Assembly: GCA_037133055.1 (NCBI GenBank)
Contig: JBAXOY010000002.1
Coordinates: forward strand, 2,985 to 66,984
Direction of reading: 5' to 3'
Source of the DNA: Chlamydiota bacterium
GTDB lineage: Bacteria; Auribacterota; Tritonobacteria; UBA1439
Length of the DNA stretch: 64,000 nt
A model generated the notes under the pieces. The model had not been told where the DNA came from, ran no database searches, and worked only from the letters and a program-made list of their open reading frames with translations. A program made the translations under genes and the position numbers. How positions within the stretch are numbered: the first letter of the stretch is position 1; each line of letters begins with the position of its first letter. Positions 6,240 through 49,127 of the stretch are shown here, piece after piece.

Positions 6240-8141
6240 TCACCCAGCCGCCGTTTCACGCTTTGACCAGAGCAGAAGAGTGGAACTGAAGACGACCGTC
6301 ACGCAACCCGCCTCCTGAAAGATGACCGCAATAATCGGTGTCATCAATCCCATGACGCCCAGGGTGAGCCCGATGACGTTGTAGATCATGGAAAAAAAGA
6401 TGTTCAGTTTGATCCGACGCAGGACTTTCGCCGACATCCACATAAAATCGGCGACACCTGATATATCATCGTTCATCAGGGTGACGTCGGCCGTTTCTAT
6501 GGCCACGTCCGTGCCGGCGGCGCCCATGGCGATCCCCACATCGGCCAGCGCGAGGGCCGGGGCATCGTTGATGCCGTCGCCGATCATTCCGACGATATGG
6601 CCTTCGGCCTGCAGTTTCCTGACATACTCCTGCTTCTGCTCGGGGAGCATTTCGGCCTGGAAATCATCAACGCCGATCGCCCTGGCCACCGCTTCGGCTA
6701 CCTGGGGATGATCGCCGGTCAGCATGGTAATTCTCTTGACCCCCAGCGTCTTGAGCAGCCGGATGGTTTGGGGGATCTCAGGACGGATCTCATCGGCAAT
6801 CGCCAGCAAACCCAACACTTCCTCGTTGTGCGCGACGAGGACGGCGGTGTGTCCCTGTTCCGATTGTTTTACAATCTCGCGCTCAACCCGGGAGACGATG
6901 GGCACACCGGCCTCCTGCAGGAAGGCCCGCTTTCCGACAAGGATATTCGCGCTGTTCCATCGGGCTTCAACCCCCATGCCCGTGGCGCTCACGAAATGGT
7001 CCGGGTCGGGAATGTCGAGGTTCCTCTCTCTGCCGGCGGCCAGGATGGAACGCCCCAACGGGTGCTCGGAATATTTTTCCGCGATGCACGCCATGCGCAG
7101 AATATCCTCCGGGCCCTTGCCGTTGAAGGAGATGATGCCTTCAACCTTGGGCCTGCCGAAGGTGAATGTCCCCGTTTTGTCCACGAGAAGGCGGTCTATC
7201 TTATGGCCAAGTTCCAGGAAGATACCGCCCTTGATGAGGACCGCCCGGCGGGCCATGGTGGAGACACCGGCGGTCACGGCGGTCGGCGTGGCTATGGCGA
7301 AGGCGCAGGGGCACGCCACAAGCAGAACGGAAACGGCGACCCTGACATCGCCGGAAATGACAAAGGCGATGATCGCAAGCAGAAGCACCGCAGGCAGAAA
7401 CCATGCGGTGAAACGGTCCGCCATATTCTGAATGGGCGCGCGCGTACCCTGTGCTTCCTGAACCAGGTGCACAATCCGCGCGAGGGTGGAGTTCTCTCCG
7501 ACCTTTACCGTGCGAATGTCGAGCCGTCCGGACTCGTTGAGTGTCCCGCTGAACACGCTGCTTCCCTGGAACTTCTCAACCGACATGGACTCGCCGGTGA
7601 TCGGGGCCTGGTTGACGCTGCTTGCCCCGGCGGTCACCACGCCGTCCACCGGGATCCGTGCGCCGGGCTTGACCACCACCACGTCACCCACGCGAAGTTC
7701 GGCGACCGGGACGACGACCTCTTCCCCCTGCCGGCGAACCGTCGCCATCCTGGGGGCAAAGTCCAGAAGGTCGCGGATGCTCTTCCGGGTCTTGTCCAGG
7801 GTGTAGGACTCCAGCGCCCCGGCGGCGGACATGATGAAGACGATAATGGCGGCGGGCCTGAACTCGCCGACCGCCATTGTGGCCAGGAGTGCGACCACGA
7901 CAAAGACATTGACCGTGATCTTCCACTTGAAGATATCCTTGAACCCGGAAATGAACCTTTGATAGCCGCCGAATACGACGGCGACGATGGCGAGCGCCGC
8001 ATTCACGAAAGACGGGCCGATTTCCCGGTGCGCGAGAATCCAACTCGCCAGGGTCAGGGCCGCAACGGCGGCCGGGACGATGGACAGGACGGCAAGGTCC
8101 CTGTACCGGGATCCATCGTGTCTTTCGTGTCTGCTCATCAC
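6240..8141 (-). CDS. heavy-metal-translocating P1B-type ATPase lacking an N-terminal HMA metal-binding domain
   Basis: 633 aa. It has the CPC transmembrane metal site (VLLVACPCAFAIATP), the phosphorylation motif DKTGTFT, the hinge GDGINDAPALA and the TGES loop. The protein begins directly in the membrane domain. Confidence 0.85.
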   Translation of the reverse strand: MMSRHERHDGSRYRDLAVLSIVPAAVAALTLASWILAHREIGPSFVNAALAIVAVVFGGYQRFISGFKDIFKWKITVNVFVVVALLATMAVGEFRPAAIIVFIMSAAGALESYTLDKTRKSIRDLLDFAPRMATVRRQGEEVVVPVAELRVGDVVVVKPGARIPVDGVVTAGASSVNQAPITGESMSVEKFQGSSVFSGTLNESGRLDIRTVKVGENSTLARIVHLVQEAQGTRAPIQNMADRFTAWFLPAVLLLAIIAFVISGDVRVAVSVLLVACPCAFAIATPTAVTAGVSTMARRAVLIKGGIFLELGHKIDRLLVDKTGTFTFGRPKVEGIISFNGKGPEDILRMACIAEKYSEHPLGRSILAAGRERNLDIPDPDHFVSATGMGVEARWNSANILVGKRAFLQEAGVPIVSRVEREIVKQSEQGHTAVLVAHNEEVLGLLAIADEIRPEIPQTIRLLKTLGVKRITMLTGDHPQVAEAVARAIGVDDFQAEMLPEQKQEYVRKLQAEGHIVGMIGDGINDAPALALADVGIAMGAAGTDVAIETADVTLMNDDISGVADFMWMSAKVLRRIKLNIFFSMIYNVIGLTLGVMGLMTPIIAVIFQEAGCVTVVFSSTLLLWSKRETAAG

Positions 8142-8195
8142 GCAACGCTCCTGCCTTCCAGCCGTACCGGGATTCGTGCAACGTCAACGACACGA

Positions 8196-8393
8196 TCAAC
8201 CGCAGCACGAACCAGTACGGTCATTTTTCTTCCCGTTTTTCTCCTTGCCGCTGTCCGATTGAGACGGGCCGCCACAGCTTTCTCCCGAGCCGCAGCACCC
8301 CCCGGTCTTGGTCATGGATTCCCATATCGCGGACAGGAACCCTTTCCCCTTTTTCCGGTTTTTCTTCGCCGTTTCCTTCTCATTCAGTTCCAT
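8196..8393 (-). CDS. small Cys-rich protein with vicinal Cys pairs; possible metal/metalloid-binding chaperone
   Basis: The most likely start is the ATG at 8393, preceded by GGAAAGGGAGG. The protein is MELNEKETAKKNRKKGKGFLSAIWESMTKTGGCCGSGESCGGPSQSDSGKEKNGKKNDRTGSCCG, with two CC pairs. It sits immediately upstream of the P1B ATPase on the same strand. Confidence 0.4.
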   Translation of the reverse strand: MELNEKETAKKNRKKGKGFLSAIWESMTKTGGCCGSGESCGGPSQSDSGKEKNGKKNDRTGSCCG

Positions 8394-8412
8394 CGCACTG
8401 CCTCCCTTTCCA

Positions 8413-9120
8413 TTAGAATGTTGCCAACAGATAGAACCCCGCGCAGACAAGCAGAACACCGGCGACGGTTCGGATCGCGGCATCCGCCTTCTGCGCCTTG
8501 AGCGAAGCCTTTCCGAACGAAACTCCGAACAGGATGGCGCTGAGCGGCAGGCTGAACCCGACCGCGAATGCGGTCATGAGCGCCATGCCCCACAGGATTC
8601 GCCCCATCAACACGCTGGCGCCGATGACGATAAATATGCCGGGATTACACGGCAACGAACATGCCGCCACACCGCCGCCGAGAAACAGTCCCCCCATCGC
8701 GGCGCCCATCTTCCCTCCGGACGCCGAAGGCGCGCCGTCTTTCCGGGCGCGGCCCGGCAGCATGAACGGGAGCAGTTTCAAAGCGGCCAGACCCAGGACT
8801 ATCGCTGTCGCCCCTGCGAACAGTTTCCAGTACCGTCCAAGAAACGCCTGCGCCGTCTGGCCGACAAGCCCGGCCACAAACCCAAGAATAATCAGCGCCA
8901 GTGTGGTGCCGACAAGGAACCATACCGCTGACACGGACGCCGAACGCCGGTCCGCGTCCCGCCGCGTGCCCGAATAGGCCACCAGCATGCCCATCGCCGG
9001 CAGGGTGCAACACGCGCTCGCCACCGCGCTGACCAATCCCAGCAGGAATGCCAGCGGCAACGCCGCCGGCCCCATACTGGCCGCCTGGAGTGCTTCTGTA
9101 ACCCGCTGCAGCATATACAA
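8413..9120 (-). CDS. CcdA/DsbD-family transmembrane thiol-disulfide electron transporter
   Basis: 235 aa with about 6 TM helices. Conserved Cys residues sit in TM segments (ASACCTLPAMG and VAACSLPCNPG), typical of CcdA/DsbD_2. Confidence 0.7.
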   Translation of the reverse strand: MYMLQRVTEALQAASMGPAALPLAFLLGLVSAVASACCTLPAMGMLVAYSGTRRDADRRSASVSAVWFLVGTTLALIILGFVAGLVGQTAQAFLGRYWKLFAGATAIVLGLAALKLLPFMLPGRARKDGAPSASGGKMGAAMGGLFLGGGVAACSLPCNPGIFIVIGASVLMGRILWGMALMTAFAVGFSLPLSAILFGVSFGKASLKAQKADAAIRTVAGVLLVCAGFYLLATF

Positions 9121-9135
9121 TACTCCTTACCTGCA

Positions 9136-9819
9136 TCACTTGGGGCAGCATCCGGACCCGGCTGCCGGACCGCATCCGCGGGCATTCGATGCCCCCACAA
9201 ATGCCTGGACAAGCTTCGTTTCCGTAATCTCCCCGGAAACCGCACTCATCCCGCGTCCCTTGACCATCGCGAGCACCGCCGGCACGGCGACTTGCGCCGT
9301 TATCTGCTCGTAGTCGCGCGCGCCCGGCTTCAGGGTGAAGACGCCGAGCTTGCCCCCCCGGGTTTCGAGCGTCCGCACCGCGCTCCGGATCTGCGCCGCC
9401 GGCGCATTCCCGGCTTTCTCTTTTTTGTCGGGCAGGAAAATGAAGACCGCGTTCGTATCGGCGGCTACCGTGTTAAGCTCTGAAAGCGCGCCGATTTCCC
9501 TTCCGGCTATCGTGTCCATGGTCGCCGGCGCATCATTCTTCGCAGAAGAGATGTCGCCTGCCGACGCGTACGTCTGTCCCGTCGCCTGCGCGGACGCAAA
9601 GCCTGACACGGCCTTATCGGCGGACACTGCTTTGGCCTTCACCACGCTCCGCGCCGCCACCACCAACGCCGCCGCCAGCACCACTGCTCCAATGACCCAG
9701 CGCACTCGACCCGAACCCCCCGCGGCATGGCACCCGCATTCGGGCCCACAGGCCTCGGGCTGCTGCTTCAGCGATTCCCTAGTGTCTGTTTGTTTCCGGT
9801 CTTCATTCGGCGTATGCAT
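9136..9819 (-). CDS. membrane-anchored hypothetical protein with Cys-rich N- and C-termini (possible periplasmic redox or metal-binding partner of CcdA)
   Basis: The N-terminus has CGPECGCH, followed by a TM helix (VIGAVVLAAALVVAA). The C-terminus has GCGPAAGSGCCPK. It lies in an operon between arsR and ccdA. Confidence 0.4.
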   Translation of the reverse strand: MHTPNEDRKQTDTRESLKQQPEACGPECGCHAAGGSGRVRWVIGAVVLAAALVVAARSVVKAKAVSADKAVSGFASAQATGQTYASAGDISSAKNDAPATMDTIAGREIGALSELNTVAADTNAVFIFLPDKKEKAGNAPAAQIRSAVRTLETRGGKLGVFTLKPGARDYEQITAQVAVPAVLAMVKGRGMSAVSGEITETKLVQAFVGASNARGCGPAAGSGCCPK

Positions 9820-15071: not shown

Positions 15072-18000
15072 GTGATCACCTTCATTCTTGCAATGAGCCT
15101 CTTTGGCCTATCACTCCCGCCGGGGAACCCCATGCCGCGCATACCTACCCCGGATAATCCTCAGGCCCGTCATCCTCTTGTTGCAAAGGTCTTGGCCGGC
15201 GATGGGACAGCGCGTTACGTGAAGAGCGGAACCGACGGCAAGGCGGATGACTCGCGGACGGAGTGCGCGCCGCGCGAGCTTCTGGTGAAGTTACGGGACC
15301 AGAGCGCGCAAAGCGGACGAAACGGAATGGCCGCCGCATCACGCACCTACACGGCAGGAGCGCTCGCAGCGAAATATAATGCAGGCGCGAGACGGCTCTT
15401 CCCAGGCCAGCCCAGGGGCGCCTTGCGCTCCGGTGTTGCCCTCAGCCGGATTTACAAGATAACGCTCGGCAACGGCTCTGTCCCGCACGCGGTTGCGGAC
15501 TGCGCCCGGTGTCCGGATATAGAGTGGGCCGAGCCGAACTATATTCGCACAACATGTCTTACTCCGGACGATACCTACTTCAATGCTTCAGGCGCGTGGG
15601 GACAGGCATACCGTGATATGTGGGGCCTGGAGAAGATTCAGGCCGAGCAGGCATGGGATATCTCCACGGGGAGCAGCGCTATTACCGTCGCGGTTATCGA
15701 TACGGGGGTTGACTACACCCATGCGGACATAGCCGCGCATATCTGGACCAATACCGATGAAATACCCGGCGACGGCCTGGATAATGACGGCAACGGGTAT
15801 ATCGATGATTATCGCGGCTGGGATTTTTGCAACGGCGACAACAATCCCATTGATGATCACGGCCACGGGACCCATTGCGCAGGCACGATCGCGGCGGTCA
15901 CGAACAATGCGACTGGAATCTCCGGCATCTGCTGGAACGCGAGGATCATGGCGCTCAAGTTCTTGAATAGCGGGGGCTCGGGGACCGACGCCGACGCAGC
16001 GCAGGCAATCGTTTACGCGGCTGATAACGGCGCCAATGTCCTGAGCAACAGCTGGGGCGGCACGGGCGTCTCCGAGACTCTCAGGACGGCGCTGCGGTAT
16101 GCGCATGATCAGGGGTGCGTCATCGTGGCTGCCGCGGGAAACAGCAGTGCCGACGTACGCAACTTTGGGCCGGCGTGCGAGAACACGGTCGTGAGCGTCG
16201 CCGCGAGCGACCATGCGGATAAAAAGAGCAGCTTCTCGAACTGGGGGCCCAAAATAGACGTGGCGGCGCCCGGAGGGAGCGGAACGGAGGCGGACGGCGA
16301 TAACCGGTTGGGGGCGGATATCCTTTCCCTGCGCGCTGCGGGGACGGATATGGGGGGAGACGGAAAATGCATCGTGGGGGGAAACTATTATCGCGCACGA
16401 GGCACCTCCATGGCCTGCCCTCACGTCGCGGGCCTCGCCGCGCTCGTCCTGTCGCATAATCCCGCGTTTTCAAATGAGGAGGTTCGGCAGGTGCTCCATC
16501 GCGGCGCCGACGATATCGAATCCGCCGGCTGGGACATGAAAACCGGTTTCGGCAGGATCAACGCCCTGAAATCACTCGAGACCGCTGCCGTTTCGGTGTC
16601 ATATATCTCCTCACCCCATTGCGGCGATACACTCTCTTCCACCGTGGCTATCAACGGCCGCGCCTTCGGGGGCAATTTCGCGAGTTATGCGCTTGAATGC
16701 GGGCCGGGCTCCGAACCTCAGAGCTGGTCGCTCATCGCGCAGTCCGCTATCCAAATCATGGACGGCGTGCTGGGCCAGTGGGATACCGCCTATGCGGCGG
16801 ACGGGTATTACACGCTCCGGCTCACGGTGAATAACGGCGACGGGACAACGGACCGCTATCTCCTGAGCGTCACCGTTAAAAACACGGAAATCACCAGCCC
16901 CGACGATGGGGATTGCGTGAAGGCGGGGACCATTGTCATCATCCGCGGCTCCTCCATTGCGCCGTCGTTTCAATCATATGTGCTCGAGTGGGGCAAAAGC
17001 AACGCATATTACTGGCCGTCGATCTGGAAGACCGACGGCATTTCCCTGGAACACGGAGGGCAGCAGCCCGTGCTCGAAGGCACGCTCGGCAGTTTCGATA
17101 CGAGCGTGATTACCGCGCCGGGCAACTATCTCCTCAGATTGCGAACACTCTCCGGCGCCGGGGAGTCGAAGGACTGCAGCAATCTCATCATTGATCCGGA
17201 TCTGAGAGACGGATGGCCGCAGCCGTTCGAGCGCTCGTGGGCGGGGATCGGGAGCGAAGCCGTTCGCTGGTCGCCCAATGTCGCCGATATTGATGGAGAC
17301 GGGCGCGCGGAGATATTCGTAGATGGATTGTACAACCAGACCGCGGGGGGGGACAGCGTCTATTCTTTTGATCTGGATGGCATGCCGTTCTCCGGGTTCA
17401 ACCAGCCTGACTATGATATCCGATGGGTCCCGTCGCTCGCGGATTTGAATGGCGACGGGCGCTGCGAAGTCATCGGCGGGAGAGGGCCCGGGGCCGGCTA
17501 TTTCAGCGTATTCCAGCACGACAAGACCGTCCTGTCGGGATGGGAATGCAATCTTCCCATAACACCCTTCACTGCGACAGCCGATCTTGATGCCGATGGG
17601 CATCTGGAAATTGTCGGGATCTCGTCCGGATCCATCTATGTGCTGGATGACCGCGGCGGGGTACTGCCGGGGTGGCCTCTGTATTTCGGCACCATCTGGG
17701 AACTGCCTGCGGTGGGAGACGTCGATGATGACGGCTATCAAGAGATAGCTTTTGTCATCAACAACGCGCAGAGCCCTGCGCAAGCGGCGGTGTACGATTA
17801 TACGGGCCATCCCCTTCCCGGATGGCCGCTACAGCTTGGTGACTCCAGCTATCGTGCATCGCCCGCCCTCTGCGACATCGACGGCGATCAGGATTTGGAG
17901 ATCGCCGTTAATGACAGCCAGCATGTGTACGTATATCATCACGATGGACAGCCCGCGCAGGGGTGGCCGCAGGCAGTTGCAGGGATTGTCACATCACCCA

Positions 18001-19286
18001 GTGCCGGTGATATGGACGGGGATGGGAGGTCCGAGCTGGCAATAACCTGCAGTGACGCCAAGGCATATCTCTTCAATTACCGGGGCGAACTGCTGCCGGG
18101 ATGGCCGCGGAGCATGAATGAGTCGTTTTCCGGAGACGCATTCTCGAACGCCGCACTGGCGGATGTGGACGGCGACGGCCGCGCGGAGGTCGTCGTCGCG
18201 GCAAGCAGCCTCATCAACAACGGAACGGAGTATATGGTGGAGCGTTGTAAAATATATGCCTTTACCATGGAGGGACAAACGCTCTCCGGATGGCCCAAGG
18301 TGCTGAAATCCTATGCCGAACCCATGAATACTCCCGCGCTCGGCGATTTCGACGGGGACGGTCTCGTGGAAATGATCGCCCTTGGCTCCGGTTTCCCGTA
18401 CAGCGAGTTATGCGTGTGGGAGCTGGACAGCGCGTATGACGATGCCGGAATGCCGTGGCCGATGCATCGTCACGACAGCTCCCGCACGGCGGGCGGCCCG
18501 CCTCTCATAGCCCTCCCGACAAGGACACCCACGGAAACGCCCACGGCAACCCCCACGCCGACCCGGACGCCGACACGAACGCCCACGCCCACTCCGACCG
18601 CGGTGCCGCACATTATTGTCAATCAGGCATGCCCGTTCACCAGCCCCGGGGAGTACGTTGAGCTCTACAACAATGGAAGCTCACAGACCAACCTCCAGGG
18701 ATGGAAGCTCAATGTTTATCAGAACGATTATATCTTCAGTGATTCAGATATAATTCCCGCGCACGGATTCTTCCTGATCTCCGACACAAGCCCGGTCAAT
18801 GGCCTCACTCCCGATGTGACATACGATATAAACATAAGTGACAACGGATCAAACAGCTACGTCCAGCTTTTGAACGCCTCCTCTGAGGTGATGGACACAG
18901 TGGGATGGGCGAGTTCCTCTCTTTACGAGGGGACACGGTTGGGAACGCTTGGAACAAATAAGGTCTGGAAACGCGTTACCGATGGATTTGACACGGACAA
19001 CAACAGCAGCGACTTCTCGCAAGTTGCCCCGAATCCCAGGAACAGTTCGTATCACCCGCCGACCGCAACTCCGACATTGACGCCCACCATAATTCCCACA
19101 CCCACGATACCACCGACGCCGACCCCCTGGGAATTCCCGAGGAGGATCAATTACCAACCTGCCGGGGCCGCGCCCGCTCCAGGATATGCGGTAGATGACG
19201 GATCCGACTATGGACCGCGCGGGGAGCATTATTACGGCTGGCGGCACTACAATGCCTCAGCCCATCCCTCGGGCGTGCCGAGGTGA
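15072..19286 (+). CDS. multidomain secreted S8 subtilisin-like peptidase with FG-GAP/VCBS-like repeats, a PT-rich linker, a lamin-tail domain, and the C-terminal NYQP...YGWR motif
   Basis: It has the catalytic triad motifs VIDTGVD, HGTHCAGTIAA and GTSMACPHVAG. There are many D.DGDGR.E integrin-like repeats. The linker is TPTETPTATPTPTRTPTRTPTPTPT. The lamin-tail-like region is NQACPFTSPGEYVELYNNG...GWKL. The tail is INYQPAGAAPAPGYAVDDGSDYGPRGEHYYGWR. Confidence 0.85.
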   Translation: MITFILAMSLFGLSLPPGNPMPRIPTPDNPQARHPLVAKVLAGDGTARYVKSGTDGKADDSRTECAPRELLVKLRDQSAQSGRNGMAAASRTYTAGALAAKYNAGARRLFPGQPRGALRSGVALSRIYKITLGNGSVPHAVADCARCPDIEWAEPNYIRTTCLTPDDTYFNASGAWGQAYRDMWGLEKIQAEQAWDISTGSSAITVAVIDTGVDYTHADIAAHIWTNTDEIPGDGLDNDGNGYIDDYRGWDFCNGDNNPIDDHGHGTHCAGTIAAVTNNATGISGICWNARIMALKFLNSGGSGTDADAAQAIVYAADNGANVLSNSWGGTGVSETLRTALRYAHDQGCVIVAAAGNSSADVRNFGPACENTVVSVAASDHADKKSSFSNWGPKIDVAAPGGSGTEADGDNRLGADILSLRAAGTDMGGDGKCIVGGNYYRARGTSMACPHVAGLAALVLSHNPAFSNEEVRQVLHRGADDIESAGWDMKTGFGRINALKSLETAAVSVSYISSPHCGDTLSSTVAINGRAFGGNFASYALECGPGSEPQSWSLIAQSAIQIMDGVLGQWDTAYAADGYYTLRLTVNNGDGTTDRYLLSVTVKNTEITSPDDGDCVKAGTIVIIRGSSIAPSFQSYVLEWGKSNAYYWPSIWKTDGISLEHGGQQPVLEGTLGSFDTSVITAPGNYLLRLRTLSGAGESKDCSNLIIDPDLRDGWPQPFERSWAGIGSEAVRWSPNVADIDGDGRAEIFVDGLYNQTAGGDSVYSFDLDGMPFSGFNQPDYDIRWVPSLADLNGDGRCEVIGGRGPGAGYFSVFQHDKTVLSGWECNLPITPFTATADLDADGHLEIVGISSGSIYVLDDRGGVLPGWPLYFGTIWELPAVGDVDDDGYQEIAFVINNAQSPAQAAVYDYTGHPLPGWPLQLGDSSYRASPALCDIDGDQDLEIAVNDSQHVYVYHHDGQPAQGWPQAVAGIVTSPSAGDMDGDGRSELAITCSDAKAYLFNYRGELLPGWPRSMNESFSGDAFSNAALADVDGDGRAEVVVAASSLINNGTEYMVERCKIYAFTMEGQTLSGWPKVLKSYAEPMNTPALGDFDGDGLVEMIALGSGFPYSELCVWELDSAYDDAGMPWPMHRHDSSRTAGGPPLIALPTRTPTETPTATPTPTRTPTRTPTPTPTAVPHIIVNQACPFTSPGEYVELYNNGSSQTNLQGWKLNVYQNDYIFSDSDIIPAHGFFLISDTSPVNGLTPDVTYDINISDNGSNSYVQLLNASSEVMDTVGWASSSLYEGTRLGTLGTNKVWKRVTDGFDTDNNSSDFSQVAPNPRNSSYHPPTATPTLTPTIIPTPTIPPTPTPWEFPRRINYQPAGAAPAPGYAVDDGSDYGPRGEHYYGWRHYNASAHPSGVPR

Positions 19287-19606: not shown

Positions 19607-20782
19607 TCAATATCCCATAAGACCGCAGCAACGGGCGCATATAGGAAAGAGCCCCTCTTTCTTCAGCGCCCGGCGGAAGCGGCGGTATCGCTCGTTGTTG
19701 AAGATTTTTGAGAGGGGCTGTTCACGGATGTTCCCCGCCACGAAGTCGGGGTAGTCGCGGCATGTGGCAACATCACCGTTGGGGAGGATGAGAGCCATGT
19801 AGTACGGCGCCAGGCAGCGGCGAAAGCCGAAGAGGCTGGAAGGGTTTTGGTAGTACTCCCGGATGGCGGTATCGTCGGGCAGGTTGGGGATGTAGAGATA
19901 CGGGAAGGGCCACCTGCGCTCTTCGAGGGCCCGGCGCCCGGCGATGAGGGCCTCCACGTCGATTCCCGTGGAACTGCCGCAGTATCCCCGCCACGACGTG
20001 GGCGTTTCGCCGAAGTGGCGCTCGAAGCACGCCTGATGGGCGCGGCCGATGGCCTCGTTGGTGAACCATGAATAATACACCCCGACGAAGTCGACCTTTT
20101 CTTCCGCGCAAATCTCGAAGGTTTCCGGCAGTGCGCGGGTGTTCTCCCGGTTGACGGTTATGAGCGCAACGAGGTACGGATGCATGCCCCCGCCGGCGGC
20201 CCGGGCCGAGCGCACCGCGGCAAGGCCCCGGCGGAGACGCCCGAAGGCGCCCGGCAGCCCCCGGACCCTGTCGTGGATCTCAGCGGGTCCATCGAGGCTC
20301 ACCATAAGCACCTCAAGCCCGGAGGCCACGATCCAGTCCGCGTTCTCGGCCAGGGTCGTTCCGTTGGTTACCATAGAGACAAAGAGGCCACGGGCCTTGA
20401 ATTCCTCGACCACTCGGCGTATGTCAGGGTAGAGCAGCGGCTCACCGCCCCAAATGTAGATGACGGGCCTCCACGCGGAGATCTCCTCTGCCAGCCGGGC
20501 GTAATTCTCGGCCGTGCACTCGCCGGCCCTGAGTTCTGCCACGCTCTTGCCAAGGTTATAGCCTTTTTCGCCCCACTGGGCGCACATGGCGCAGCGCATA
20601 TCGCACCGATTGGTGATCTTCAGGTCCAGTTGCATCGGGGGCAGGAAGCTCCTGCCCCCGCCGAACCAGTAATCGACGTACGACGTTGCCTTCCGACGAG
20701 CGACCCCGCGGGCCAGCAACCGTAGGAGTTCCGGTTTGGTCTTCAGGATCTTGTGGACGATGGACCAGGAGAGCCTATTCAT
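19607..20782 (-). CDS. radical SAM enzyme with a C-terminal Cys-rich SPASM/twitch-like extension
   Basis: It has the CDMRCAMC (CxxxCxxC) cluster and the GGEP-like motif IWGGEPLLY. The C-terminus carries additional cysteines (CRDYPDF, PICARCCGLMGY). There is no recognisable precursor-binding (RRE) domain. Confidence 0.8.
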   Translation of the reverse strand: MNRLSWSIVHKILKTKPELLRLLARGVARRKATSYVDYWFGGGRSFLPPMQLDLKITNRCDMRCAMCAQWGEKGYNLGKSVAELRAGECTAENYARLAEEISAWRPVIYIWGGEPLLYPDIRRVVEEFKARGLFVSMVTNGTTLAENADWIVASGLEVLMVSLDGPAEIHDRVRGLPGAFGRLRRGLAAVRSARAAGGGMHPYLVALITVNRENTRALPETFEICAEEKVDFVGVYYSWFTNEAIGRAHQACFERHFGETPTSWRGYCGSSTGIDVEALIAGRRALEERRWPFPYLYIPNLPDDTAIREYYQNPSSLFGFRRCLAPYYMALILPNGDVATCRDYPDFVAGNIREQPLSKIFNNERYRRFRRALKKEGLFPICARCCGLMGY

Positions 20783-21123: not shown

Positions 21124-22329
21124 ATGATCACAAGATGTAGCGTGGTATTTTTTTCATCAGCACTTCTTATTTTTTCTGCAGCGGTTGACCCCGGATATTC
21201 TCAGAGCCTTGACATTTACTGCATTGAGGTAGGGCTTGATGATGCGCCCCCTGACACAAACGCGCAGGGTGACTCGACCCTCATTCTCTCCCCGGATGGA
21301 TCTACCCGTGTGCTGATTGACGGAGGCATGGGGAAAGAAAACGGCGCGGATTCCGTGCTCGCCTGTTTAAGCAGGGTGATACCGACGGGCGGCCTCACCG
21401 CTATGATCGCCACGCATTGGGATGCGGATCACTATCAGGGCCTTTCGGATATTGCGGATAATGTCGCCACCGGCATGCAGTATATGCCGACGACCATCTA
21501 TGATCTCGGCGATATAGGCAGCGACCCTTCATGGACGTATAAAACCACGTTCGAGGGCAGGCGGGTGACCCCCACCGTCGGGACCACGCTTGACCTCGGC
21601 GGGGGCTGCTCAATACGTTTCGTCACTATCAACGGAAACATCCTTGGCGGGGGATTCAAGGATCCGGTCGTCAATGGGGAGGACGTGAGCAATGCCCGGA
21701 GCATCGGCGTGGTCGTACGCTACGGTGGATTTGATTACCTGACCTGCGGTGACCTCGAGGGCGTAGATCTTAGCGACCCTTATTATTATGTGAATACCGA
21801 GGGACCGCTGGGGGCAGCTCTCGCTGCCGAAGGCACTCATATCGACGTGCTCCACGCAAACCACCACGGGAGTAGCCTCTCGACGATCAGCGCCTTCGTG
21901 TCGGCAATCGGCCCTGAATACGCGGTGATCTCGTGCGGCGATGGCAATACCTATGAGCATCCCACTCAGTCGGTGATAAACAGGCTGAGCGGTTTGTCCC
22001 AGATATACCTCCTCGAACAGGGGACTCCCCGGACCGGATCGAATATCACCATCGTCGGGAATGGGAATATGCCGGGCTATCCCGGCGATCCCACCGAGCA
22101 GGGGAGTTTGCATATTTCCGTCAGCGACGGCGGACGCCGGTTTACCTTTTCGAATGAAGGGCCGAATACCAACGGCTTTATCGACGGCCCCTATGATTCA
22201 AGTGAGCTGACGAGGGTGAATTTCCAGCCCGCGGCATCGTCGACGCCGAGCGGATACTACAAAGACTCCGGCGCCGCCTACTCCTCCCATGCCGGTCCCA
22301 ACGGTGCGCTGAGCTATGGGTGGCGCTGA
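21124..22329 (+). CDS. secreted metallo-beta-lactamase-fold hydrolase (ComEC-C-terminal-like) with the C-terminal VNFQP...YGWR motif
   Basis: It has a signal peptide and the MBL motif ATHWDADHYQG (HxHxDH-type), with a later HANHHG. The tail is VNFQPAASSTPSGYYKDSGAAYSSHAGPNGALSYGWR followed by a stop. Confidence 0.7.
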   Translation: MITRCSVVFFSSALLIFSAAVDPGYSQSLDIYCIEVGLDDAPPDTNAQGDSTLILSPDGSTRVLIDGGMGKENGADSVLACLSRVIPTGGLTAMIATHWDADHYQGLSDIADNVATGMQYMPTTIYDLGDIGSDPSWTYKTTFEGRRVTPTVGTTLDLGGGCSIRFVTINGNILGGGFKDPVVNGEDVSNARSIGVVVRYGGFDYLTCGDLEGVDLSDPYYYVNTEGPLGAALAAEGTHIDVLHANHHGSSLSTISAFVSAIGPEYAVISCGDGNTYEHPTQSVINRLSGLSQIYLLEQGTPRTGSNITIVGNGNMPGYPGDPTEQGSLHISVSDGGRRFTFSNEGPNTNGFIDGPYDSSELTRVNFQPAASSTPSGYYKDSGAAYSSHAGPNGALSYGWR

Positions 22330-23076: not shown

Positions 23077-26000
23077 GTGCGTGAAGCGCATATGAGTGAA
23101 CAGGCTATCTTGCTCAGTTTCTATTTGAATGATACAGACGCCGGCGAGGCATTGCGGCAGCTGCGTCATGCGCGGTTCAGGCGCTCGGTATCCATACACA
23201 AATCGGCCGAGGGGCGCATTCGCACCGACGGCAGCTCCCTGCGACACGGCGTATTCTGGGGGATTGTCAGCGGCCTGCTGTGCGGCGTTCTCGCCGGGAT
23301 AGGCATGGCGCGTCTGCCGTGGCTGTTCGGCGGCGTGGCGGGCTACCTCGCGCTGGGCATGCCGGTGCTGGCCGGGTGGGTGATCGGGTGGTTCACCATA
23401 CGCAGGGTGAGTCTCGGCCTCGACGAGAAACTGGTGGAGAATCACGCCCGCTGGCTTACGGCCGATGAGACCGTCGTCATCGTCCAGGACTTCCCGGAGG
23501 CGGTGAGCAGGGCGATCTCTCTGCTCCGGAGCACAGGGGAGAGCCAGCCCGCCATTTTCATCATTCGCCGGCAGCCCGGCGGCCCGATCGACGGTGAACC
23601 GGTCCAGGGCGAACCGTTGGCCGCCGCCCGGCTTCAACGGTATGCCCGGCGCCTCGCATCCACACACCGCGTCAAGGCGGATGTAGGGCGCGAAGAGCCC
23701 CTCCTGCGGCAACTCGGCCTGTGCGAGGAGGTCATCGAACGCGTGCGCCAGGAACTCGCTGAGGCCTCCCGCATGGAGCACACCATCTCCGCCACGGCGG
23801 AGTGGATCCTCGACAATGCCTACATCATACAGGGACAAATCGACGACGTCAGGATGCACCTGCCGAAAAAGTTCTATCACGAGCTGCCGGTCCTCGCGTC
23901 CGAACCCGGCAACGGCCAGCCGCGGATCTACCATCTCGCCGCGGAGTTGATCCAGCACGCCGACAGCTACCTGGACCGCAACAATATCAACGAATTCTTG
24001 ACGGCGTATCAATCGGTCTCGCCGCTGACGATCGGCGAGCTCTGGGCGGCGCCGCTGATGCTGCGGATCGCACTGCTTGATATCCTGCGGCGATTGACCG
24101 AGCAGATCGACCGGCGGCTGCACGAGCAGGAGCGCGCCGACTTCTGGGCCAATCGCCTGCTCACCGCGGCGAGGCGCGATCCCAATCAGTTGTTCTTCAT
24201 CCTGGCCGAATTGGCCCGTGAGCAGCCCGACCCAAGCGCGCATTTCGCCTTCCAGCTCACCGGCCCCCTGTACGATGCGGAGGCCGCGCTGGTCCCGGTC
24301 CGGAGCTGGCTGGAACGCACGCTGGGCCGCGGGCTCGGCGAGACCGTCATCCAGGGAGAGTCCCGGCAGGCTGCCGACCAGGTCTCCATCGGCAACGCGA
24401 TCACGAGCCTGAGGCAGCTCTCGAGGCTGGACTGGCGTGAGATCTTTGAGCGCCAGAGCCGGGTCGAGGCGATTTTGTGCAACGATCCGGCGGGCGTCTA
24501 TCACCGTATGGACTTCGCCACCAAGGATAGATATCGCCACGCGGTTGAGGAGATTTCCCGCGATTCGACGACGTCGGAGGAGGGTGTCGCCCAGGCCGCC
24601 GTTGAGATGGCCGGCGGGCACCCGGACCGCGCCGCGGGGGATCAGCGCCTCGGGCATGTCGGATATTACCTGATCGACGAAGGCCGTCACGCGCTTGTCT
24701 CGCAGCTGCAGGGCCATGAAAAGAGCCGGTACAGGGCGCTGCAATGGGTGTACCGTCATCACACCGTGCTCTACCTGTCGGCCATAGGATCGGCAACAGC
24801 CCTGATCATCGGCGCCATTTTCGGATACGGCGTCTGGATGACCGGGCGGGCGGGGTTGACCGCGGTCGCGGCGCTCCTCGCCCTCCTTCCGGCCAGCGAG
24901 CTCGCCATCCAGGCGGTTAATTACCTCGTGACCCGCCTTGTGCCGCCCGGGACGCTGCCGAAGATGTCGTTCGAGAAGGAGGGCATCCCCGATGAGTTCC
25001 GCACGCTGGTCGTCGTGCCGATGCTCTTTCTGGACCGCCGGACCATCCGCGAAGATCTCTACAAGCTGGAGGTCCGTTATTGCGCGAATCCGGAAGCGAA
25101 CATACTGTTCGGCCTCTTCGGGGACCTGCCCGACGCGGACACGCAGCACAAGGACACGGACGCCGGCCTGTTGCGCCAGGCCGTCGAGGGGATCACCGGC
25201 CTCAACGCGCGGTACGGCGAGGGCCGATTTTACCTGTTTCACCGCGAGCGTGAATGGGTTGAAACAGAGGGGCGATTCATAGGGTGGGAGCGCAAGCGGG
25301 GCAAGCTCGAGGAACTGAACCGGCTGTTGAACGGCGCTTCTCCCCGCGACGGACGGAAGATCGTTCACGTGGGCGATCCGCACAAGCTCGCGAACATCCG
25401 CTACGTGATCACCCTCGACAGCGACACCCAGCTGCCGCGCGCCAGCGCCCGGCGCATGATCGAAACCATTTCCCACCCGCTGAACCGCGCGAGGCTCAGC
25501 CCGGATGGCCGCATGGTCATCGGCGCCTACGGCGTCATTCAGCCGCGCATCAGCATCTCGCTGCCCAGCGCGGCGGCGACCCCCTTCAGCCGTCTGTACA
25601 CCGATCCCGTCGGCACCGACCCCTACACCAGGGCGGTGTCGGACGTGTACCAGGATCTGGCGGGCGAGGCCTCTTATCTCGGCAAGGGGATCTACGAACC
25701 GCGGATGTTTTACCGCGTTCTCGCCGGCCGGTTCCCTGAGCAGCTGCTTCTCAGCCACGACCTTATCGAGGGCGCGCATGTGAGGGTGGGGCTTGCGAGC
25801 GATATCGAACTCTACGAGGAGTTCCCCCCGGATTATATTTCCTATATAAGCCGGCAACATCGCTGGATCTGCGGCGACTGGCAGATCGCCGACTGGTGCA
25901 TGCCCCGCGTGCCGACGCCCGAGGGGACGCGCGCGCCCAATCCCCTCTCGGTGCTGAATCGGTGGAAGATATTCGACAACCTCAGGCGGAGCCTGGTGCC

Positions 26001-29000
26001 GGTCGCATCCGCCGTGCTCCTTGTCGCATCCTGGCTGCTTTCGCCGGCGCTGGGCGCCGCTGCCGGCATCCTCGTCGCCCTGCCGGTGATCTTTTCGCCC
26101 CTCGCGCAACTTCTCACCTGGGTGACGACCGCGCCGGGATCGGGAAAGGTCTCATGGGGCGAACTGGGCCATGGTATCTCCCGCTCGTTCGTGGGGGCGG
26201 CCCTTATTCCGCACCAGGCAATCCTCGCCACGGACGCGATTGTGCGGGTCTGGTACCGCCGCCTGGTCAGCACGCGTAGGCTGCTCGAGTGGACGCCGGC
26301 TCAGATAGCAAAGTGGAAGACCCGCGGCCGCGCCCCCGCCTTCCTGGCGCGTGTGAGCCTCATCAGCCTTTTCTCGCTCGGCGTCGGAATTGCCGTGTGG
26401 CTGCGTGAACCGGCCGGACTCCCTCTCGCAGCGCCGTTTCTGGCCCTGTGGCTGCTCAGCCCGCTGATCGTGTGGCGGCTGTGTGCCAAGCCCCGCCGGA
26501 AGCCGCCGCGCGGGCTGGTTTCGCGCGGCGATGCGCAGATGCTGAGGAGCATAGCCCGGCAATCCTGGCGCTATTTTGACGACTATGTCGGCCCCGAATC
26601 GGGCTGGCTCCCCCCGGATAACTACCAGATCTCCCACCAGAACAGCATCGCCCTGCGCACGAGCCCGACGAATATAGGCCTGTGGCTTCTGAGCGCGGTC
26701 GCGGCATACGATTTCGGCTACCTGGCCGGCGACGAGGTCATCCGGCGCCTTGGAGAGACGTTCGCAACCCTCGGCGGACTCGTGCGATACGAGGGCCACC
26801 TCCTGAACTGGTACGACCTGAAAACGCGCGCGCCCTTTGAGCCGCGCTATGTGTCTACCGTGGACAGCGGCAACCTGCTCGGCTGCCTGTGGGCCATGGA
26901 GCACGGCATCGGCGATCTGACCGACGGGCCGCTGATCGGCCCGCAGGCCATCCGGGGGTTGTATGACGCGCTCGGGATCCTGCGCGATCTGATACCCCGG
27001 ACTCCCCGTGATGACGAGCTCCTCGGGGCCATGGGGGCGCTCGAGAAGCTTCTGTGCGATCCACCGGAACGGCTCGACGAGATCATCCGCCGAATCCGCC
27101 AGGCGGCAGCGCCGGCGGGGGTCGTTGCGCAAGTGCTTCGACAGGGCGACGGGGCGGGCAGCGAGCCCTCCTACTGGGCGGAGGCGCTCGTGCGACAGCT
27201 CGCTGGCTGGGGTGCGTTCGTCGACCGCTACCTGGCATGGGTGGAGATGCTGCCCGCCGAATTGGAAGGGGTTCTGATCCGGCTCGGGCCCGAGGTGCGT
27301 GACGCCCCCCGACAGGCGCTGAGGGAGGCTCCCTCAGCGCGGTCCCTTGCGGCCGGGGCTGTTCCCATGTATATGGCCCTCAGGGCGGTGCGAGGGAAGG
27401 CGGGAGAGCATTCCGCGCCGCTCGGGGAGTGGATAGACCGGTTCAGCGAAGCCTTTTCCCGGGCGCAGGGGCCGGCTGGCGAATTGTGCGCGCGGGCTGA
27501 CGATCTCCTCCGGCGCAGCAGGGACCTTGGCAACGGCATGAATATGCGGTTCCTCTATGACCCCGACCGGCGGTTGTTCAGCATCGGCTTCAATGCCAGC
27601 GAGCAACGGCGCGACACCTCGTACTACGACCTTTTTGCCAGCGAGGCCAGGCTGGGCAGTTTCGTGGCGATCGCGCGAGGCGACGTCCCGAGCGCGCACT
27701 GGCTGGCGATGGCCCGGCCGTTCGGCTCGATCGGGAACCGCCGGGTGCTGCTCAGCTGGGGCGGCACCATGTTCGAGTACCTGATGCCGCTGCTGCTTCA
27801 GCGCGTATTCCCCCATTCGCTGCTGGAGAGGGCCTGTCGCGAAGCGGTCGGCGCGCAGATAGCCTATGCGCGCCGGCAGGGAGTGCCCTGGGGGATTTCG
27901 GAGTCGGCCTACAGCGACCTGGACGCGAATAAGACGTATCAGTACCAGGCCTTCGGCGTGCCGGGGCTGGGGCTGAAACGGGGACTCGAAGACGACCTGG
28001 TTGTCGCCCCGTATGCATCAATGCTGGGGCTCCTGGTGGATCCGGCGGCGGCGGTGCGCAACCTGAAATGGCTTGCGCGGCTCGGGCTTCATGGCGGCCA
28101 TGGATTTTTCGAGGCGATCGATTTCGGAAGGCAGCGCCGACGCGAGGGCGGCCGCGGGGTGATCGTGCGCGCCTACATGGCGCACCACCAGGCGATGGGG
28201 TTCCTTGCGATCGACAATTTCATCAACGATTCCGTGATGCAGCGGCGCTTTCACTCCGACCCGCGGGTCAGAGCGACCGAATCGCTGCTGTATGAGCGCA
28301 TTCCGATTTCGCCCCCGCGCTACCAGGTGCCGACGCGCGAACGGGCCGCCTCGCGCGTGATGCCCACGGGGATTGCCCCGGCGGCCGGCAGGTTTGAAAC
28401 GCCGCACTCGGTCACGCCCAAGACGCAGCTCTTCTGCAACGGGCGCTACTCCCTGATGGTGACCAGCGCCGGGGGGGGATACAGCCGATGGCGGGATTTC
28501 GATGTCACGCGCTGGCGGGCGGATTCCACCTGCGACGAGTGGGGTGCGTTCTGCTACATCCGTGACGTGCGGAGCGACCGGGTGTGGTGCACTACGTATC
28601 AGCCCGTCCGCGGCGCGACGGACAAGTACGCGGTCACCTTCACTGTGGACCGGGCCGAGTTCCGCCGCTCGGACGGCGACATCGACACCGAGACCGAGAT
28701 CGTGGTGTCGCCCGAAGACGACGCGGAGATCCGCCGCATCGCCCTGGTCAACCGCTCCGGACGCAAAAAGAAGCTGGAGCTGACCAGCTACATGGAGCTT
28801 GCCCTCGCCCCGCATGGCGTGGATCGCCAGCATCCCGCGTTCAACAAAATGTTTGTGTGCACGGAGGCGATCGAAAAGCGCGGCGCGCTGCTCGCGTTCC
28901 GGCGCCCGCGCAACCTGGACGACCCGCCGATCTATGCGGCGCACTGCATGACATTCGAGACAGGGACGAAAGGCGCGATGCAGTTCGAGACGGACAGGGG

Positions 29001-32000
29001 GCGGTTCATCGGGCGCGGCCGCACCACCGGCAATCCGGCTGCGTTGTTTGGCGCCTTGTCGCAAAGCGCCGGACATGTGCTCGATCCGATTTTCAGTCTG
29101 CGTCGCACGGTGGTGCTGGAACCGGGACAGCGCGTGCACGTGTCTCTCGTCCTCTGCGTCGCCGAGTCGCGCAAGGACGCCCTGGCGCTGGTCGAGAAGT
29201 ACAGCGACCCCCAGACGATCACGCGGGAGCTCGATCTCGCGTGGACGTACGCCCAGGTGGAGCTCCGTCGCCTGCGCATCGAGCCGGACGAGGCCCGCCG
29301 TTTTCAGCAGCTCGCCAGCTACATGCTGTATCCCAGCTCCAAGCTCCGGCCGGCATGGGATCGCCTGCAGCAGAACCGGCTGGGCCAGTCGCGCCTGTGG
29401 CCCCATGGCATCTCGGGCGACCTCCCGATAGCCGCGATCAGCATCGGGGAGTCGGGCGACATCAGCCTCGTGCGCCAGATGCTCCAGGCGCACGCCTACT
29501 GGCGCCTCCACGGCCTGAAGGCGGACCTGGTCATACTCAACGAGGAATCCAGCGGCTATGAGCAGCCGTTGCAGGAAGAACTGAAGAGGCTTGTCAATTC
29601 CCATTCGATGCACGCCGGCGTTGATCAGCCCGGCGGGGTCTTTCTGCGCAGCGCGGACCACATCCCGGATGAGGACCTGACGCTGATACTCTCCGCCGCC
29701 CGCATAGCGCTGGTGGCCGCCCGCGGCCCCCTGTCCCAGCAGCTTGGCGCGCCGACGGAGGCGGCGGAGCTCCCCGCCCCGCTGCCTGTCCGCGCCATCC
29801 CTGAAGAGCCCTCGCTCCCCTTGCCGTTCATGGAGTTGCCGTACTTCAACGGTCTGGGTGGCTTCACCCCCGACGGCCGCGAGTACGCGATCTATCTCGG
29901 CCCCGGGGCGCACACGCCGGCGCCGTGGGTGAATGTGATCGCCAACCCGAGCTTCGGCGCCCTGGTCAGCGAGTCGGGCGCGGGCTTCGCCTGGTACGGC
30001 AACAGCCAGCAGAACCGCCTGACGGACTGGTCCAATGACCCGGTCTCCGACACGCCGTCCGACGCGCTATATATCCGCGACCAGGAAACGGGAAAGTTCT
30101 GGACGCCCACCCCCCTGCCGGTCCGGGAGATGGACGCCTACCGCGCGCGGCATGGCGCGGGCTACACCGTTTTTGAACACAACAGCCACGCCATCCAGCA
30201 GGAGCTCATTACCTTTGTGCCGATGGATGAAAACGGTGGAGAACCGGTTCGCGTGCAGCGGCTCCGGCTGCGCAACGACTCATCACGCATACGGCGACTG
30301 GCGGTCACCTTCTACGTCGAGTGGACTCTCGGCGAGAACAGGGAGGACAGCCAGACGCACGTGATAAGCCAGTGGGACGGCGAGACGCGAACCATGCTGG
30401 CCCGTAACCGCTACCACCCGACGTACGGCGACCGCGTCGCCTTCGCCACGATCAGCCCCGCGCCCAACAGCTATACCGCCGACCGCACCGGCTTCCTCGG
30501 GCGCAACGGGACCTTGGCCGCGCCCGCCGCCATGAAGCGCACCCGCCTGGCGAGCCGCGTCTGGCCGGGGCTCGACCCGTGCGCCGCCGTGCAGGTGGCG
30601 CTGAATCTGCCGCCGGGGGAAAACGCGGAGGTGACCTGCCTGCTCGGACAGGCAGGCTCGATCGAAGAGGTCGGTCGCCTGGTCCGGAAATACCGCGATC
30701 CCGCCGAAGTGGAGGAATCCCTGAAGCGCACGATCGCATGGTGGGACCGGCTGTCGGGAACCATCCAGGTCAGCACCCCGGAGAAGTCGGCGGATATCCT
30801 GTTGAATCGCTGGCTGCCGTACCAGACGCTGAGCTCGAGGATCTGGGGACGGACCGGGTTCTACCAGTCGAGCGGGGCGTTCGGATTCCGCGACCAGCTC
30901 CAGGACGTGACGGCAATGGTATACGCGGAGCCTGACATCGCCCGGCGGCACATACTGCTCGCGGCGGGCCGCCAGTTCAGCGAGGGAGACGTTCAGCACT
31001 GGTGGCAGCCGCCGTCCGGCGCGGGCATACGGACACGCTGTTCCGATGACATGCTCTGGCTGCCGTACGTGGTGGCCCGTTATGTTCGTTTCACGGGCGA
31101 TGCGGGAATCCTGAACGAGCGCATCCCTTTCATCGAGGACCGGGTGCTAGATGAAAAAGAGCATGAGGTCTTTATGACTCCGCACGAGTCCATGGACAGC
31201 GCCACGCTCTACGAGCACTGCCGCCGGGCGATTGTTCGCGGAGCAAGTTCAGGGCCTCACGGTCTGCCCTTGATCGGCAGCGGTGATTGGAACGACGGCA
31301 TGAACCGGGTGGGCATCAAGGGGATCGGAGAGAGCGTCTGGCTGGCATGGTTTCTCATAGATGTGCTCAATGCGTGGGCCGGGATGGCGGAGCTGCACGG
31401 CAGCCCGGAGCATGCGGCCGCATGCCGCGAGAAGGCCCGAACGCTTGCCGAGGCCGTCGAGCGACATGCCTGGGACGGGGGATGGTACCTCCGGGCCTTT
31501 TATGACGATGGCACGCCGCTCGGTTCGGCGGCGAGCGAGGAGGCCCGCATCGACTCACTGCCCCAGTCATGGGCGGTGCTCAGCGGCGCTGCCGACCCCG
31601 AGCGGGCGGCGCGGGCGGTCGAGTCCGCACTTGAGCAGCTGGTGCTCAAGGAAGAAAATCTTGTACTGCTGCTCGCGCCGCCGTTCGACAGAACAGAGAA
31701 GAACCCGGGCTACATCAAGGGGTATCCCCCCGGCGTCCGGGAGAACGGAGGCCAGTACACACATGCCGCGTTATGGCTGGCAATGGCACTCTGCCGGCGG
31801 GGCGACGGGGACCGGGCGGTTTCGCTGCTGCGGATGATCAACCCGATCGAGCGTGCGCGCGACCCGGAAGCCGTGAAACGCTACAGGGTCGAGCCGTACG
31901 TGACCGCCGGCGACGTCTATCGCCTGCCGGAACGGGTCGGTCAGGGCGGCTGGACCTGGTATACCGGTTCCGCGGCCTGGATGTATCGCATCTGGATCGA

Positions 32001-48786: not shown

Positions 48787-49127
48787 TCGTGAGCCTTCGT
48801 CGAAGTCGCCGGGGCCGTCTCGCCCCCCGCGGGCCGGTGGCGGGGCGGTTCGCCAATCTTCCCGCGCAGATCGCTCACTTCGCGCTTCAGTTCGATCATG
48901 CGGAGGGTGCGATCGACGGCGACCCGGTTGAAGCGGCTCAGCTCGTCGTTGCGGGCACGGGGTTCTCCGGCCTGCTCCCGCAGCGCATCCTCCGCCTTCT
49001 TGCGCGAGGTGGTGTCGCTCGTCACGGCGCGGTACACGGGCGCGCCGTCGGCGTCCTGCGCCGCGATTGCCCCCACCCGCGCCCAGAATGACAGGGCGTC
49101 TTTTCGCGCCATCCCCATCTCCCACAC
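48783..49127 (-). CDS. possible remnant or N-terminal piece of a sensory protein (PAS-linker / coiled-coil-like segment)
   Basis: ...TSRKKAEDALREQ...ELSRFNRVAVDRTLRMIELKREVSDLR resembles inter-domain linkers of PAS sensor proteins. Its stop abuts the B12-binding protein start in another frame. Confidence 0.25.
   Translation of the reverse strand: MWEMGMARKDALSFWARVGAIAAQDADGAPVYRAVTSDTTSRKKAEDALREQAGEPRARNDELSRFNRVAVDRTLRMIELKREVSDLRGKIGEPPRHRPAGGETAPATSTKAHE

Follow-up and report, generated by a model that had tools for sequence, protein, structure and literature searches.

A shared C-terminal tail on four secreted proteins

The DNA analysed here is a 64,000-nucleotide stretch (the window) of a Chlamydiota bacterium assembly (GCA_037133055.1, contig JBAXOY010000002.1, positions 2,985 to 66,984), placed by GTDB in the Auribacterota (Tritonobacteria, UBA1439). 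Four of its proteins, with otherwise unrelated bodies, close with one and the same short tail, here called the stub, which is the opening segment of a carbohydrate-binding-type β-sandwich cut at a fixed point. The four tails are the translations of 19146-19283, 22216-22326, 42820-42918 and 62100-62207, and each closes a long open reading frame (ORF). All four tail-bearing ORFs have a high third-position GC content, a composition of the coding type. The carriers and their stubs are listed below, with E values for an external-stub profile and for a profile of intact domains, both described further on.

15072-19286, plus strand: S8 subtilase, stub carrier 1 (Pfam Peptidase_S8 3.7e-57, plus FG-GAP_3 and LTD)
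19146-19244, plus strand: stub 1, INYQPAGAAPAPGYAVDDGSDYGPRGEHYYGWR (external-stub profile E 3e-16; intact-domain profile E 2.4e-7)
21124-22329, plus strand: secreted hydrolase of the metallo-β-lactamase (MBL) fold, stub carrier 2 (signal peptide; kin of the ComEC MBL domain)
22216-22326, plus strand: stub 2, VNFQPAASSTPSGYYKDSGAAYSSHAGPNGALSYGWR (external-stub profile E 4e-15; intact-domain profile E 1.7e-9)
41869-42921, plus strand: secreted protein of 350 aa, stub carrier 3 (signal peptide; no linker ahead of the stub)
42820-42918, plus strand: stub 3, INFQAHVATRPAGYLEDLALPYGVMGGYRFGWR (external-stub profile E 1.5e-11; intact-domain profile E 2.9e-5)
52956-62210, plus strand: secreted multi-domain protein of 3084 aa, stub carrier 4 (Pfam and NCBIfam domain matches)
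62100-62207, plus strand: stub 4 (36 aa), the most divergent of the four (external-stub profile E 3.3e-7; intact-domain profile E 0.53, not significant)

The subtilase carries FG-GAP repeats, a lamin-tail domain (LTD) and Pro/Thr linkers; its start codon is uncertain, the NCBI call being 20 codons shorter. Its stub is followed by an atypical extension of 13 residues, HYNASAHPSGVPR (19245-19283), and a TGA stop. A preliminary description of this DNA had the protein running 14 residues past YGW(R), which is correct when counted from the Trp; from the Arg the number is 13. Stubs 2 and 3 are followed immediately by TGA, and stub 4, which lacks the Arg, immediately by TAG. The 350-aa carrier matches no Pfam or NCBIfam model and no PDB sequence, and its earlier label, TIM-barrel hydrolase, is a putative one. 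The domains of the largest carrier include M23, a DUF1565/NosD β-helix, PKD, LVIVD, HAF repeats, Lcl_C and DNRLRE. Its true start is the ATG at 52956, with a signal peptide after it, giving the 3084 aa already reported for this surface protein; a longer ORF of 3318 aa, opening with GTG at 52254, was rejected, as it overlaps a separate HEAT-repeat gene (51865-52959) in another frame.

The tails are genuine chain ends

That four unrelated proteins share a C-terminal tail was confirmed by translation and by two profile searches. A profile of the four tails, run against the six-frame translation of the window, matched those four only (E 1e-18 to 1e-21; next 0.2), and a profile built from 15 foreign stubs picked out exactly these four again, each at the end of an ORF (next best E 2.7). 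The same proteins were found, identical, on contigs of a separate NCBI metagenome-assembled genome (MAG), GCA_964409435.1 ('Chlamydiota bacterium'), and of several ENA/Logan assemblies. The DNA 3' of the four stops is non-coding: all three frames close quickly, and nothing is common to the four loci. With identical proteins in independent assemblies and nothing coding past the stops, the truncation is therefore biological. Recoding or readthrough was also ruled out, since the downstream frames close so fast, RNA folding downstream of the stops is no stabler than that of shuffled sequence (z −0.9 to +0.1), and stubs end on any of the three stop codons (TGA at three of the window loci and TAG at the fourth, TAA elsewhere).

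The tail is the beginning of a malectin-like domain

Genome and metagenome collections were scanned at the DNA level with a degenerate pattern, N[FY]Q[PA]-x5-[PA]xG[YF]-x13-22-[YF]GWR, for which zero chance matches are expected in the window. The scan was anchored on the reverse complement of W-R(CGN) and is thus biased toward stubs and domains with Arg after GW. Its yield was 10 loci in genomes and 14 in metagenomes, which fall into two classes. The first consists of intact domains, found in Planctomycetota, Phycisphaerae, Tepidisphaerales, Anaerolineae and Salinibacteraceae and on two metagenome contigs (L024, L028); after the motif, the intact domain of about 150 residues reads …YGWxxDNxAxxRDRNxxxSPDQRYDTLxxxxxWEIAVPNGxYxVxVxxGD…DGxLTI…NxKIxFxEI. 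In the second class, from Candidatus Tritonobacter lacicola (Auribacterota, a member of the Planctomycetes-Verrucomicrobia-Chlamydiae (PVC) group) and several bins, a stop codon comes right after GWR.

An exhaustive search of 1.84 billion representative proteins with the tail profile gave 827 clusters at E<=1e-3, and almost all of these are intact domains. Among the best 150 proteins, the rest of the domain comes after the motif in 366 of 376 copies, with up to 7 copies per protein, and conversely the motif lies upstream in the same chain for 475 of 477 matches to the rest of the domain. The two headless sequences among those 477 were considered as acceptor candidates (see below) and discarded, one as a contig-edge fragment and the other as a classical malectin. 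When a profile of intact domains from other phyla, containing no window sequence, was compared with the four tails, three of them matched at profile positions 2-36 (E 1.7e-9 to 2.9e-5).

The intact domain mostly goes without Pfam annotation. It matches PF21254 (AGA-YXIM_GBD, the β-agarase/YxiM galactose-binding-like domain) below threshold, only a few copies reaching it, and against the PDB its profile finds the N-terminal domain of Bacillus subtilis YxiM (2O14, E 1.4e-5). An AlphaFold model of one intact copy has a predicted local distance difference test score (pLDDT) of 95.9, and Foldseek ranks its PDB neighbours as 2O14 (E 6e-8), the malectin-like domain of FERONIA, the carbohydrate-binding module (CBM) of a Bacteroides β-glucuronidase, and CBM35/CBM6. 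The tail is thus strands 1-3 (model residues 11-46) of a YxiM/malectin-like, carbohydrate-binding-type β-sandwich, ended just past YGW. The preliminary description had noted a faint resemblance to malectin-type folds; given the match at profile positions 2-36 and the fold of the intact domain, this resemblance is true homology.

The intact NFQP…YGW…RDR…DQRYDTL…WEIAVPNG domain looks like a family of its own for which there is no dedicated model. In planctomycete proteins (L016, L017 and P0001) it often stands right behind an N-terminal 'LE(x)RRLL', as in IESLEERRLLATTPLALKINFQP; this motif is typical of the N-terminal region of planctomycete secreted proteins.

With this unannotated bacterial subfamily the stub shares NFQP, PxGY, DxG, YG and YGW, but it lacks about 115 of the roughly 150 residues, in the protein and in the adjoining DNA alike; it also always ends the protein and favours a terminal Arg that is rare in intact domains. 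A complete sandwich was not recovered: the rest of the domain (RDR…DQRYDTL, WEIAVPNGxY) is present neither in the window nor in the carriers or the stub loci. A split gene or circular permutation was ruled out on the same ground, by profile searches of six-frame translations and carriers and by hhalign. Judged by its sequence, the stub alone cannot be a carbohydrate-binding module. It had been foreseen that the motif might prove to be the internal start of an ordinary domain, truncated here by assembly or frameshift errors. The first part holds, the motif being internal in the great majority of its copies; the second does not, as the copies in the window are not truncations of that kind.

A class of stubs in Auribacterota-like organisms

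Nineteen distinct stubs are now known, 4 in the window and 15 in Auribacterota-like MAGs or contigs of the PVC group elsewhere. The latter are distributed as follows.

Ace Lake Tritonobacter contigs: 5 stubs, 3 in tandem in locus L026, 1 on a C25 peptidase and 1 on a DUF5122 propeller protein
CALLYX01 / ERZ1026796 bin: 2 stubs, on an MBL hydrolase and on a CBM96/disaggregatase-repeat protein
L038 (Logan ERR14173470, 14.7-kb contig): 3 stubs, on an LTD giant, a C25 peptidase and an MBL+LTD protein
L031, L033, P0133, P0145 and P0159: 5 further stubs

Their pattern is [IV]-N-[FY]-Q-P-x5-P-x-G-[YF]-x2-D-x-G-x2-Y-G…[YF]-G-W-(R)-COOH, with a core of 30-37 residues. The chain ends 0-4 residues past GW in 18 of the 19, the exception being the S8 protein of the window. 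Wherever the rest of the domain is missing, the protein stops at that point, and the motif never runs into unrelated sequence. The hallmark residues N, F/Y, Q, G-Y, D-x-G, Y-G and Y-G-W are kept even though the stubs are only 31-46% identical overall.

The preliminary consensus had an initial R, in R-[IV]-N, and a final (R); both are only preferences. As the DNA scan required Arg, its frequency was counted solely in the 13 stubs found by other routes, of which 7 have R, 3 have nothing after the W, and one each has Q, D or T. Among 342 intact domains, only 7 have R behind GW, the other residues at that position being N, S, D, V, I, T or L. That the terminal Arg is not universal is also clear from L038 (169-11737), where the stubs, on three out of four neighbouring genes for secreted proteins, have diverged and end in YGWTAP*, YGWD* and YGW*.

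A signal peptide is present on every stub carrier whose N-terminus is available, and in many of them a Pro/Thr linker lies directly ahead of the stub. Among the carriers are S8 and C25 peptidases, MBL hydrolases, LamG proteins, β-propellers, CBM96/DNRLRE proteins and giant adhesins. The window, Tritonobacter and L038 have a protease-plus-MBL gene neighbourhood in common. The claim of a strictly C-terminal module on unrelated secreted proteins extends to other genomes, with 19 distinct stubs counted altogether.

No Pfam or NCBIfam model matches the four tails even at E<=10, those for type IX secretion system (T9SS), PEP-CTERM and LPXTG-type signals included, nor do the stubs contain a hydrophobic helix (the highest 15-residue Kyte-Doolittle mean is <=1.27, mostly <0.6). 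Both observations agree with the initial view that the motif is not hydrophobic and is not a PEP-CTERM, LPXTG or GlyGly anchor. Its separation from the C-terminal domain of T9SS cargo stands as well, the core being too short and without a match to that model. No such tag is mentioned in the one paper on the Auribacterota that was consulted.

Linker and stub move as a cassette

Two genes of locus L026 encode unrelated bodies, yet they agree at about 95% of positions across the final ~240 nt, the part that encodes linker and stub, which indicates a recent cassette transfer or gene conversion. These are the first two of a tandem trio of stub proteins (L026 1-5823, Ace Lake contig Ga0208771_1000082). 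In the same locus two paralogous LamG genes carry different stubs. Orthologues of the window's MBL hydrolase, about 50% identical to it and found in 'Candidatus Aureabacteria' and in bins, end alternatively in the stub, in a PQQ-type propeller or in FG-GAP repeats. The Pro/Thr linker and the stub are thus exchanged between genes as a cassette.

That the motif normally opens a longer domain could also be read as decay, with the stubs being functionless remnants or products of misassembly, frameshift or recoding. The artefacts are contradicted by the identical proteins of independent assemblies, the use of all three stops and the lack of a coding frame beyond them. Decay is hard to reconcile with a cut at the same point in 18 of 19 stubs from several organisms, with hallmark residues retained at such low overall identity and with movement of the cassette between unrelated genes. 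We regard this explanation as effectively excluded.

In intact domains, stub residues are coupled to the remainder

In the AlphaFold model of the MBL carrier, the body has pLDDT >90 and residues 366-401, the stub, fall below 50 without any secondary structure. Mean-field direct coupling analysis (DCA) of 489 intact copies (effective number 424) placed among its top 60 couplings 14 that link stub residues with the rest of the domain, including Y27-R66, D30-W83, Y44-W83, W46-W83, N15-T69, T12-I85 and R13-E159. From these couplings it follows that in the intact fold the hallmark residues pack on RDR…DQRYDTL, on WEI and on strands 82-86 and 157-162.

These results bear first on the idea that the stub is an autonomous mini-module, which would bind a glycan, a metal ion or another ligand without a protein partner and so keep part of the parent site. 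The N-terminal segment is indeed the best-conserved part of the intact domain, it is rich in aromatic and acidic residues (Y, Y, W, D, N, Q) such as typically line carbohydrate and calcium sites, and the parent fold is of the carbohydrate-binding type. The stub is nevertheless predicted to be disordered, its conserved residues couple to the rest of the intact domain and not within a self-contained unit, and some 33 residues of a jelly-roll are unlikely to fold by themselves. We consider the mini-module improbable.

Proposed docking by strand complementation

The reading that we favour, while giving it somewhat less than an even chance, is that the stub is a localisation or docking tag acting by β-strand complementation. 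Presumably unable to fold alone, it would need a partner: the disordered stub would step in for N-terminal strands that are absent from, or can be displaced in, a malectin-like acceptor domain carried by a scaffold or surface protein, and the completed acceptor would tether the cargo enzymes there. Docking is favoured because the residues conserved in the stub are the very ones that coevolve with the missing part, and because a fixed chain end at the boundary of strand 3 is what a split domain needs.

A more specific form of the proposal is somewhat less likely: the stub might be one half of a naturally split carbohydrate-binding-type domain, by which secreted enzymes of Auribacterota-like bacteria are docked onto a surface scaffold in the manner of a cellulosome. 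Here the stub of about 33 residues would insert as strands 1-3 into headless or strand-displaced malectin-like acceptors.

Several points weigh against docking. No acceptor was found in the window, where a search for the rest of the domain (hmmsearch --max) gave only E>7 and hhalign against 15 window proteins a probability <=1.1%, or in the other loci of stub-bearing organisms, which form part of the ~265 kb fetched. Its absence weighs only weakly, because the loci searched cover considerably less than 10% of any single genome. A shallow alignment over the stub may be part of the reason for its low pLDDT, and the strand pairing is deduced from DCA and general jelly-roll topology. We know of no natural split carbohydrate-binding module that could serve as precedent. 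Finally, a sorting signal read by machinery would account equally well for the favoured terminal Arg and for the kinds of cargo (S8, C25, LamG, adhesins).

Two known systems offer a comparison. Like the dockerins of cellulosomal enzymes, the stub is short and C-terminal, stands behind Pro/Thr linkers on many unrelated secreted enzymes, is interchangeable between genes and presumably acts in trans. It is, however, half as long, has no kinship with dockerins in sequence or fold, and lacks their duplicated calcium-binding loop-helix; neither the tails nor the full carriers match the Pfam dockerin model (PF00404), and no cohesin-like partner was found in the available DNA. The second system is donor-strand complementation or exchange in pili, where a disordered terminal strand completes the β-sandwich of another polypeptide, as is proposed for the stub; the likeness is a mechanistic analogy only. 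In type V pili, C-terminal strands replace an N-terminal strand that has been cut off by an Arg-specific C25 protease. Donor-strand exchange is described for these type V pili of Bacteroidota (PMC13655056, PMC9046445). The carriers considered here are enzymes and adhesins and not pilins, the parent fold is a jelly-roll of the CBM type, and an acceptor, an usher and a processing step would all be hypothetical here.

A sorting signal as the main rival

In the main rival to docking, dedicated machinery, such as an outer-membrane translocon or a sortase-like peptidase, would recognise the stub as a C-terminal signal for sorting or secretion. It might also cut the stub off and link the cargo covalently, as happens in the T9SS and exosortase/PEP-CTERM systems, and the likeness to the N-terminus of a domain would then reflect evolutionary origin only. 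The distribution of the stub is tag-like: several unrelated signal-peptide proteins per genome carry it, strictly at the C-terminus and behind linkers, in a restricted lineage and in tandem 'cargo islands', and its cargo (S8, C25, LamG and giant adhesins) falls into the classes that bear T9SS or PEP-CTERM tags elsewhere. The organism appears to be diderm, as a TolC-like OEP gene adjoining the window region suggests, so secreted proteins would need to cross an outer membrane. GWR-COOH, favoured in stubs and rare in intact domains, points to a new constraint at the chain end. Sigma-54 two-component genes lie near stub genes in the window and in L026; as a lead only, they are comparable to the PrsK/PrsR pair of PEP-CTERM systems.

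On the other side, no candidate machinery is conserved beside the stub genes across the loci of different organisms, the stub has no transmembrane helix and does not match the T9SS C-terminal-domain model at E<=10, and a sorting signal leaves unexplained why the residues conserved in the stub coevolve with the missing part of the domain. On balance we think this explanation rather unlikely. Known tags of the T9SS/Por_Secre_tail, PEP-CTERM, LPXTG and GlyGly-CTERM kinds resemble the stub in position, in the diversity of their cargo, in being confined to a single lineage and in occurring in several copies per genome. Unlike PEP-CTERM, LPXTG and GlyGly-CTERM, the stub has neither transmembrane helix nor basic tail, and no sortase-like partner is evident; and whereas the T9SS C-terminal domain is folded and 70-100 residues long (TIGR04183), the stub has about 33 residues, is predicted to be disordered and gives no match. 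For the proposal that the tail belongs to a dedicated export, attachment or modification system, no evidence was obtained.

In the window, a cluster at 45640-51199 encodes a heme-oxygenase-domain protein, a histidine kinase, a B12-binding-domain protein and a sigma-54 response regulator, and may sense light, B12 or redox state. In L026 a sigma-54 two-component pair (6345-9632) adjoins the tandem stub genes of Tritonobacter.

Neighbouring genes

An orphan gene for a radical S-adenosylmethionine (radical-SAM)/SPASM enzyme (19607-20782, minus strand) lies between the S8 and MBL carriers, and the stub could accordingly be a substrate for modification, for instance for cross-linking of the kind that produces ribosomally synthesized and post-translationally modified peptides (RiPPs). 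The enzyme is not of the anaerobic sulfatase maturase type, and its best NCBIfam matches, to a tungsten-cofactor maturase, AhbD and a 'putative metalloenzyme maturase', are far below cutoff. Some SPASM enzymes cross-link aromatic-x-basic motifs such as YGWR, which is a lead only. However, no radical-SAM gene is among those annotated in the stub cluster of L038, and the neighbours scanned in L021, L023, L026, L029 and L034 (part of the ORFs there) gave no radical-SAM match. The arrangement seen in the window recurs only in assemblies of the same organism, and the window's other radical-SAM gene is a standard sulfatase maturase beside sulfatases. Modification by this enzyme strikes us as very improbable.

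The preliminary description had singled out the radical-SAM gene as a candidate for co-occurrence with the stub, together with a C39-like peptidase, a TolB-like protein and a glucan synthase. The first has no counterpart by the stub genes in the annotated loci of other organisms, and none of the others could be tied to stubs elsewhere. Neighbouring machinery as a whole (radical-SAM, TolB-like, sigma-54 two-component and peptidase genes) was dropped from consideration, being inconsistent across organisms.

Among the remaining genes of the window, the segment 34735-37542 holds one for an anaerobic sulfatase maturase (TIGR03942, E 1e-146) immediately upstream of one for a sulfatase, and a second sulfatase of 817 aa (43126-45579) is encoded just past stub carrier 3; together these form a locus for the degradation of sulfated glycans, interleaved with stub proteins. 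A protein of 3068 aa (23077-32283, plus strand) combines GH94, glycoamylase and GH94 β-supersandwich domains and is cyclic β-1,2-glucan synthase-like; it has no stub and no obvious signal peptide. Third-position GC is low in a gene for a ComEA-like helix-hairpin-helix protein (40800-41711; 0.42) and in one for a transporter of the major facilitator superfamily (MFS; 186-1721; 0.56), against ~0.75-0.85 elsewhere, and both genes may have been acquired horizontally.

Implications

C-terminal tags on secreted proteins are already known, but the tag described here is novel: it has no Pfam or NCBIfam model, and its architecture and origin are unusual. It is a fragment of a CBM-type fold cut at a fixed point, without a hydrophobic anchor and with its packing residues kept. 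Such tags show how bacteria sort and display their secreted proteins, each new one has usually led to new machinery, and the hosts of this one belong to a barely studied candidate phylum of the PVC group. Even if the stub is a conventional sorting signal, its profile would mark the surface and secreted proteome of these uncultured organisms and would permit phylogenetic profiling to find its partner. Docking through a split domain, if true, would be categorically new. Strand complementation would then represent a new principle for assembling extracellular enzyme complexes, and the stub with its acceptor would make a compact natural pair, a counterpart of engineered split-domain tag/catcher pairs with possible use in protein engineering.

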